The notes under the pieces were generated by a model, which ran no database searches, was not told the DNA's origin, and saw only the letters and a program-made list of their open reading frames with translations. Below are positions 62,762 through 63,165 of a DNA stretch of 64,000 nt, one piece after another. This stretch comes from Escherichia phage vB_Eco_ZCEC15: the sequence record PQ871103.1. The stretch is one strand, 5' to 3'. The stretch's first letter is position 1. Each line of letters opens with the position of its first letter. A program made the translations under genes and the position numbers.

Positions 62762-62805
62762 TTAGTACCTTATATAAATTATAATACATTTTATGAAGCT
62801 AATAA

Positions 62806-63165
62806 TCAATACGGTTTAGCATCAAATTTTCTTTCAATTTCAGGCGTGAAATATAATTCTTTACCACGTTTGGAAAAGCGACCAATAATATGATAATTAT
62901 TCTCATCAAACGTGATATTACCAATATCCATAGCTTTCAACCAAATATCGATATTTCTATCCAGCTTTATGTCAAAATTCCAATACGGAGAACTATTACC
63001 GAAAATACTGCAAGCGGATTCAGTGAAACAACTGCTATAAATCTTGTCTTTAGGAACTACTAATTGATAAACACCTTTAATAAACTGAGGACCCTGCCAC
63101 TTTGGCTGTTTCGCGTCTTCTTCTAATAGAATAGGATAATAATTAAAATTCATATTTTCCGCCAT
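62806..63165 (-). CDS. hypothetical protein, 119 aa, inserted between frd and td
   Basis: ORF with no recognisable motif; its start overlaps the last 23 nt of an extended frd ORF; frd and td overlap directly in T4 as I recall. Confidence 0.55.

Follow-up and report, generated by a model that had tools for sequence, protein, structure and literature searches.

The td.1 gene between frd and td of Escherichia phage vB_Eco_ZCEC15: a probable ancestral Tevenvirinae arrangement, lost from T4 by deletion

In phage T4 (NC_000866) the frd and td genes overlap directly by 4 nt (ATGA) and no td.1 is present. In Escherichia phage vB_Eco_ZCEC15 (PQ871103.1), of which the whole 64,000-nt stretch analysed is here called the window, no such overlap was found: 381 nt separate the frd stop codon (TAA, 63145-63143) from the td ATG (td start at 62761), and the frd-td segment exceeds that of T4 by about 417-419 nt. 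The locus raises the question of which phage carries the altered junction. The initial annotation took the interval, which it put at about 400 bp, for an insertion into a T4-like junction. Its estimate of the distance and its description of T4 were borne out by the alignment, as were the sequences and coordinates it quoted for a 119-aa ORF (62806..63165, minus strand) and a 205-aa frd (63143..63760, minus strand).

Every gene between 60.8 and 64.0 kb of the window lies on the minus strand. An 81-aa ORF, cut by the window end, occupies 63760 onward (63760-64000) and is followed by frd, encoding dihydrofolate reductase (63143-63760), td.1 (62806-63153) and td (from 62761), all on the same strand. 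The td gene is divided into a 549-nt exon 1 (62213..62761, 97% identical to T4 and T2), a 1016-nt group I intron (61197..62212) carrying the I-TevI ORF (61344-62081), and a 312-nt exon 2 including the stop codon (60885..61196). The 81-aa ORF also abuts the frd start in T2 (L003:1666-1911), RB3, ZCEC14, fFiEco06, G28 and FL18; in T4 the ORF is lacking, with just a 71-nt spacer in its place, so that small ORFs are missing from both sides of its frd.

The ORF between frd and td is td.1, an old and previously annotated gene present in this position in most T4-like phages, and the arrangement is an ordinary one that is already in the databases. The name td.1 is given to the gene in this position in the GenBank record for T2H (AY262132.2). 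In the literature that record is cited only as a sequence source (PMC2790892), and no paper discussing td.1 was found in a literature search. The protein matched phrog_1928 ("unknown function") with an E-value of 9.3e-36, residues 8-115 aligning with profile positions 2-125 of 126. By tblastn, td.1 was present in 554 of 50,697 phage records; in 362 of these the identity was at least 90% (including T2, T2H, AR1, wV7, RB3 and PST), and 192 were distant matches below 60% identity.

The 119-codon ORF is correct as a mechanical reading from an upstream ATG at 63165, but the conserved start lies further in. That ATG is replaced by GTG in T2 and by ACT in F2 and AlbertHofmann, and the 115-aa form was annotated in all six records inspected (T2H, T2, ZCEC14, RB3, F2 and AlbertHofmann). 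A Shine-Dalgarno-like GGCGGA (63158..63163), invariant in the window, T2, F2 and AlbertHofmann, lies 5 nt upstream of the second ATG. Translation of td.1 would thus likely begin from its own Shine-Dalgarno at the ATG at 63153, giving a coding sequence of 115 aa plus stop (62806..63153). The dN/dS of td.1 was 0.01-0.05 in a comparison of alleles with dS up to 0.7-1.0; it was 0.03-0.05 for the pairs diverged that far and 0.00-0.05 between closer alleles. From these low values td.1 is a real gene, and a reading of the segment as non-coding spacer is ruled out. The profile match and the dN/dS also uphold the earlier view of the ORF as a genuine gene of unknown function.

The Td.1 proteins of T2H (AY262132.2, ABI48932.1) and T2 (PV648364.1) differ from that of the window by one residue (99% identity), and these phages share with the window the frd-td slot, the Shine-Dalgarno and start, and the td-proximal spacer. 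T2 differs from the window in having a run of three A in frd, a 193-aa Frd, a 20-nt frd-td.1 spacer and no td intron. RB3 (KM606994.1) matches the whole arrangement, with an extended Frd, a 115-aa td.1 (RB3_232), a split td, the intron and I-TevI. Its Frd is 204 aa, with the tail NEITCGGKYEF and an 11-nt overlap with td.1, but its frd is only 89.5% identical to that of the window at the DNA level; the window frd falls in an F2/Mosigvirus-like allele group (95%).

The td.1-td spacer (62762..62805) contains promoter-like pattern matches and the td Shine-Dalgarno, AAGG. At about 62762-62809 a sigma-70-like TTGATT-17-TATTAT was seen, as was an AGCTTCA resembling a MotA box some 12 nt ahead of TAATTT, and td may have a putative promoter of its own here, as far as such patterns indicate function. 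F2 and AlbertHofmann (Mosigvirus) lack a 32-nt part of the spacer, and T4 lacks the whole.

A word-indexed homolog search recovered only three close relatives, and hence 1.84 billion representative proteins were searched exhaustively with a profile. This search returned 23 clusters at 50% identity, 21 of them genuine; the other two (P0021 and P0023) were repetitive, retroelement-like sequences and were dropped as spurious. All named cluster members are hypothetical proteins of T4-like Enterobacterales phages (Enterobacter, Kosakonia, Pectobacterium PM2, Klebsiella, Erwinia Cronus and FBB1, Salmonella S16 and Melville). No cellular homolog of Td.1 was detected among the 1.84 billion proteins, and the family is phage-restricted. 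The distant members of PHROG 1928 (from phages of Klebsiella, Enterobacter, Kosakonia, Edwardsiella, Citrobacter, Erwinia, Pectobacterium and Salmonella) resemble Td.1 in length (95-116 aa), in the motifs LLExDxKQxKW, HG(I/V)Y, GN(I/V) and IIGRFxKxG..F.P, and in their position after frd. They differ in their low identity to Td.1 (26-45%) and, in several genomes, in the presence of a second, tandem paralog.

The position of these distant homologs was as conserved as their motifs. The order frd, td.1, td was found in T4-like phages of Klebsiella, Enterobacter, Edwardsiella, Citrobacter, Erwinia, Pectobacterium and Salmonella, in all 22 homolog-bearing loci (8 annotated public and 14 from IMG/VR), and the same slot is occupied in at least eight Tevenvirinae genera. 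Within the same genomes identity was 26-45% for Td.1, 41-54% for Frd and 78-84% for Td, a graded divergence that argues for vertical descent of td.1. We regard frd-td.1-td as, with high probability, the ancestral Tevenvirinae arrangement; td.1 is an early-region gene under strong purifying selection, vertically inherited in its slot.

In three phages a second small ORF between frd and td is a td.1 paralog (Merlin, L007:1787-2134; PEi26, L005:1817-2173; FBB1, L008:1056-1511). These paralogs, from Moonvirus, Kanagawavirus and Roskildevirus phages, share QKKW, HGFY and GRFDKRGSEILF motifs. The relationship was assigned by hhalign probability for Merlin (97.8%) and FBB1 (95.8%), and by eye from the shared motifs for PEi26. 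The extra ORF indicates that the td.1 family has been duplicated in tandem in these phages, and such a pair could form a heterodimer.

The T4 junction was then compared directly. T4 resembles the window in its flanking genes, in its td intron with I-TevI and in near-identical sequence on either side of the junction, and differs in one continuous block, which the window/T2/T4 alignment showed to be missing from T4. In T2 a 9-bp copy of TAAATGAAA bounds the block on each side, at the frd stop and at the td start. The corresponding sites in the window are AAATGAAA in the frd stop region (63172..63179), at the left end of the segment absent from T4, and TAAATGAAA across the td start codon (62756..62764), at its right end. 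When one repeat copy and the intervening DNA (417 bp) were removed from T2, the T4 junction was obtained with 2 SNPs in 90 nt. By this reconstruction the T4 junction is the derived one, produced by a 417-bp deletion between TAAATGAAA repeats of a T2-type sequence, which took with it td.1, its Shine-Dalgarno and the promoter-like td-proximal spacer. Because td.1 is found at this position in eight or more genera and the T4 junction can be rebuilt by repeat deletion, T4 carries a deletion and the window no insertion; the initial annotation's insertion at the frd-td junction was thus not sustained.

The frd-td interval does vary among T-even phages. Three states were found in a rough census of 569 records matching the region: 362 records have td.1, about 135 have an unrelated 68-aa ORF instead, and 32 have neither (T4-type). 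The T4-type junction was counted with a 38-nt probe able to match only the fused junction; about half of the 32 records are T4 or T4-like laboratory stocks, and T4, G28 and FL18 show no difference over 100 nt of the junction. A pattern census of four junction types in IMG/VR gave too few matches, some of them by chance, and was not used. The 68-aa ORF of the Tequatrovirus records (fFiEco06-type, AUV61095.1) fills the same interval as td.1 with unrelated sequence. It (MSNKLKVKDVPNAMALF...; fFiEco06, L009:3122-3328) is nested exactly from the frd stop (ATGA) to the td start (TAATG), a slot equivalent to 62762-63178 of the window, and had no Pfam or NCBIfam match. Homologs of it at 43% identity occur in Phapecoctavirus, and in some Klebsiella phages, kv_tblp2 among them, the ORF lies beside a td.1 homolog.

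The relation of td.1 to the td intron was assessed by comparing phages with and without it. At least 30 records, including RB3, PST and SHFML-11, contained td.1 plus the intron at 100% coverage; the figure of 147 records at 80% coverage or more was not taken as the count, since genomes without td.1 still reach about 82%. T2 and ZCEC14 have td.1 without the intron. ZCEC14 is the closest relative of the window, 99.8% identical over the junction, and apart from the intron its td differs by only four SNPs (nt 528, 531, 544 and 546), none of them in exon 2. The four SNPs (window 62213-62240) lie at most 22 nt upstream of the intron site, in the I-TevI cleavage/recognition zone. The pattern looks like gain or loss of the intron with a minimal co-conversion tract, and the confinement of the SNPs to 22 nt means that the tract ends about 500 bp short of td.1. 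Intron homing is uncoupled from td.1 in the window. The intron was present in all three T4-type junction genomes inspected (T4, G28 and FL18), and if anything has hitchhiked with it, in this small sample of three genomes, it may be the td.1 deletion allele. In G28 and FL18 (L027 and L028; 2001-2168) the td intron holds just a 168-nt remnant annotated as a homing endonuclease, which looks like a degenerate I-TevI. A mosaic breakpoint was also seen near the frd/td.1 boundary of the window, td exon 1 being 97% like T4/T2 and 80% like F2, and frd 95% F2-like.

The remaining feature to be explained is the long Frd. The window Frd is 88% identical to T4 Frd over residues 1-194, and its gene is 95% identical at the DNA level to the F2 allele and 88% to those of T4 and T2. 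DHFR NCBIfam models were matched below their curated cut-offs, and the protein showed full-length similarity to T4 Frd. Where T2 and T4 read TAT AAA TGA, the window reads TAT AAA AAT GAA. The run of three A (TATAAATGA) in T2, T4 and fFiEco06 makes the TGA stop of a 193-aa Frd; the run of five A in the window (TATAAAAATGAA, 63177..63181) adds two A, shifts the frame and moves the stop 36 nt further downstream. The 11 tail codons and the TAA stop (63143..63178) are read from spacer sequence between frd and td.1 and from the opening 11 nt of td.1 itself. With the frd stop 8 nt within td.1, the two genes overlap by 11 nt, the same as in other phages with the tail; in more distant genera the overlap is 4-23 nt.

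The initial annotation rightly described a 205-aa Frd with a tail running into the ORF, but its tail of 12 novel residues needs amending on both counts. The tail has 11 residues, the twelfth extra codon being an internal one-codon indel relative to T4 Frd, and in-frame tails occur in RB3, RB5, RB6, RB7, RB9, RB10, JB75, PhiZZ30, ZCEC14, F2 and AlbertHofmann, with the form NEIATGGKYEF in F2 and Mosigvirus AlbertHofmann. The 205-aa Frd is thus a natural and widespread allele, in which A5 reads through into the spacer, and A3 creates the TGA of the short form. Three diverged groups of frd alleles, an outgroup genus among them, have A5, and A3 was confined to T2, T4 and fFiEco06 (94.6-97% identical); by outgroup reasoning on this handful of alleles, A5 is probably older than A3. 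The tail is most simply a by-product, since it overlaps the td.1 Shine-Dalgarno and start codon, which determine most of its sequence.

Other accounts of the locus were weighed against this evidence. That td.1 is a recent accessory insertion, hitchhiking at a recombination hotspot formed by the intron of td together with I-TevI, draws on the three states of the slot within Tequatrovirus, on the mosaic make-up of the window and on homing with co-conversion of flanking DNA, which is well documented (PMC2988022). Against it stand the td.1 orthologs at 26-45% identity in the same slot of at least eight genera, the occurrence of td.1 with and without the intron, the restriction of the differences from intronless ZCEC14 to within 22 nt of the intron site, and the repeat-mediated deletion that accounts for the T4 junction. 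We judge the hitchhiking proposal of the initial annotation to be very improbable. An alternative for T4 itself is a deletion of the 68-aa ORF from a fFiEco06-type parent through a 5-bp microhomology; the fFiEco06-type frd is the closest to the left flank of T4 (97%), but for the 5' end of the T4 td, T2 and the window are the better match. A sequencing or assembly artefact, with a miscalled A-run and a true Frd of 193 aa, might also be suspected, as the A5/A3 difference is a 2-nt change in homopolymer length, an error-prone kind of site. However, A5 and the in-frame tail recur in independently sequenced genomes with diverged flanks (those of RB3, RB5-10, F2, AlbertHofmann, JB75, PhiZZ30 and ZCEC14), and a 2-nt error is less typical than a 1-nt one, which leaves the artefact extremely improbable. 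Taken jointly, an ancestral frd-td.1-td arrangement, a natural 205-aa Frd allele, a deletion in T4 and a putative OB-like Td.1 form the best explanation, which we regard as highly probable. Nothing contradicts its evolutionary part.

Several public records attach a function to td.1, labelling it a homing endonuclease, a glucose-1-phosphate adenylyltransferase or a second dihydrofolate reductase (MZ501047, MZ501065, MZ501113, MZ501066, MN580668, OR125554, PQ571308, OK274152 and MW749001). Homing endonucleases are marked by a GIY-YIG, HNH, LAGLIDADG, His-Cys box or PD-(D/E)xK domain. This label (BASEL records MZ501047, MZ501065 and MZ501113) was rejected, as no Pfam or NCBIfam domain was found in the window protein or shared among 24 family members, and no nuclease was matched in PDB by sequence or by fold. 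Glucose-1-phosphate adenylyltransferases have an NTP-transferase domain and about 400 aa; td.1, so labelled in MN580668, OR125554 and PQ571308, encodes 115 aa and matched nothing in Pfam or NCBIfam. A second dihydrofolate reductase was unsupported by domain or fold searches. None of the three labels should be propagated.

Searches of Td.1 and of the 24-member family against Pfam, NCBIfam, PADLOC and PDB sequences gave nothing meaningful, PDB matches to dynein and TagH (E-values 0.03-0.07) being noise. The conserved residues in the 115-aa numbering are Q16, W19, G27, Y29, N79, G91, F93, K95, G97 and F102; the window protein has all of the invariant and nearly invariant residues of the 24-sequence alignment, and most family members are mildly basic. 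From that alignment AlphaFold2 gave a confident model (pLDDT 90.7, pTM 0.83); a run with a 4-sequence alignment (pLDDT 56) was discarded. The model has strands at residues 6-12, 27-34 and 62-64, a helix at 68-77, and strands at 80-82, 86-96 and 99-104, and for Td.1 a small β-barrel with a single helix is predicted. Structure searches returned weak matches dominated by OB-fold modules and no significant structural neighbour. The modules matched (RPA14/32, Stn1-Ten1, HIN, S1 and Cdc13) resemble the model in its predicted order β1-β2-β3-α-β4-β5 and in the size of a small barrel. By their secondary-structure positions, Q16 and W19 lie in the loop after β1, and G91, F93, K95 and G97 in the β4-β5 hairpin; the usual ligand-binding regions of OB folds are the L12 loop and the β4-β5 hairpin. 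Td.1 would accordingly be modelled as a soluble OB-like barrel with conserved residues of aromatic or basic type in the loop following strand 1 (KQxKW) and in the hairpin of strands 4 and 5 (GRFxKxG).

What such a barrel might do can be framed in more than one way. The model suggests a soluble OB-like barrel that is made together with Frd and Td and binds nucleic acid or a protein partner, a working hypothesis that we hold at low confidence. The position of td.1 does not by itself prove a link to thymidylate, since synteny is conserved for most small T4-like ORFs, and Td.1 is dispensable in the laboratory, since T4 lives without it. About equally plausible is a host-takeover or anti-defence accessory, a small, fast-evolving and dispensable protein inhibiting a host factor, whose position would be merely historical; this we hold only tentatively. 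It would fit the faster evolution of Td.1 (26-45% identity) than of the neighbouring Frd (41-54%) and Td (78-84%) in the same genomes, the absence of td.1 from T4 and about 170 other Tequatrovirus genomes, where it is dispensable, its tandem duplicates in several genera, its restriction to phages with cellular homologs undetected, and the presence of another exchangeable small ORF in the same slot. The very low dN/dS within Tequatrovirus speaks against an ongoing arms race at that scale. PADLOC models gave no match to Td.1, although this is a weak test, the library consisting of defence and not anti-defence proteins. A more specific form of the barrel model, in which Td.1 represents a phage-restricted β-barrel family (a divergent OB or a new fold) working physically with the thymidylate cycle, is rather doubtful. 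If it were true, Td.1 could anchor Frd and Td on DNA or gp32 within the dNTP-synthetase complex, or its target could be td/frd mRNA, and it would have been missed in sixty years of T4 genetics only through a 417-bp deletion in the reference strain.

For the T-even phages, these results indicate that the T4 reference is atypical at this junction, the textbook frd/td overlap being in all probability a derived deletion that about 6% of sequenced relatives have. With the T4 overlap derived in this way, "absent from T4" should not be read as "inserted". The remaining interest lies in Td.1 itself, a strongly conserved, phage-only family with a confident predicted structure, encoded inside a nucleotide-precursor operon.
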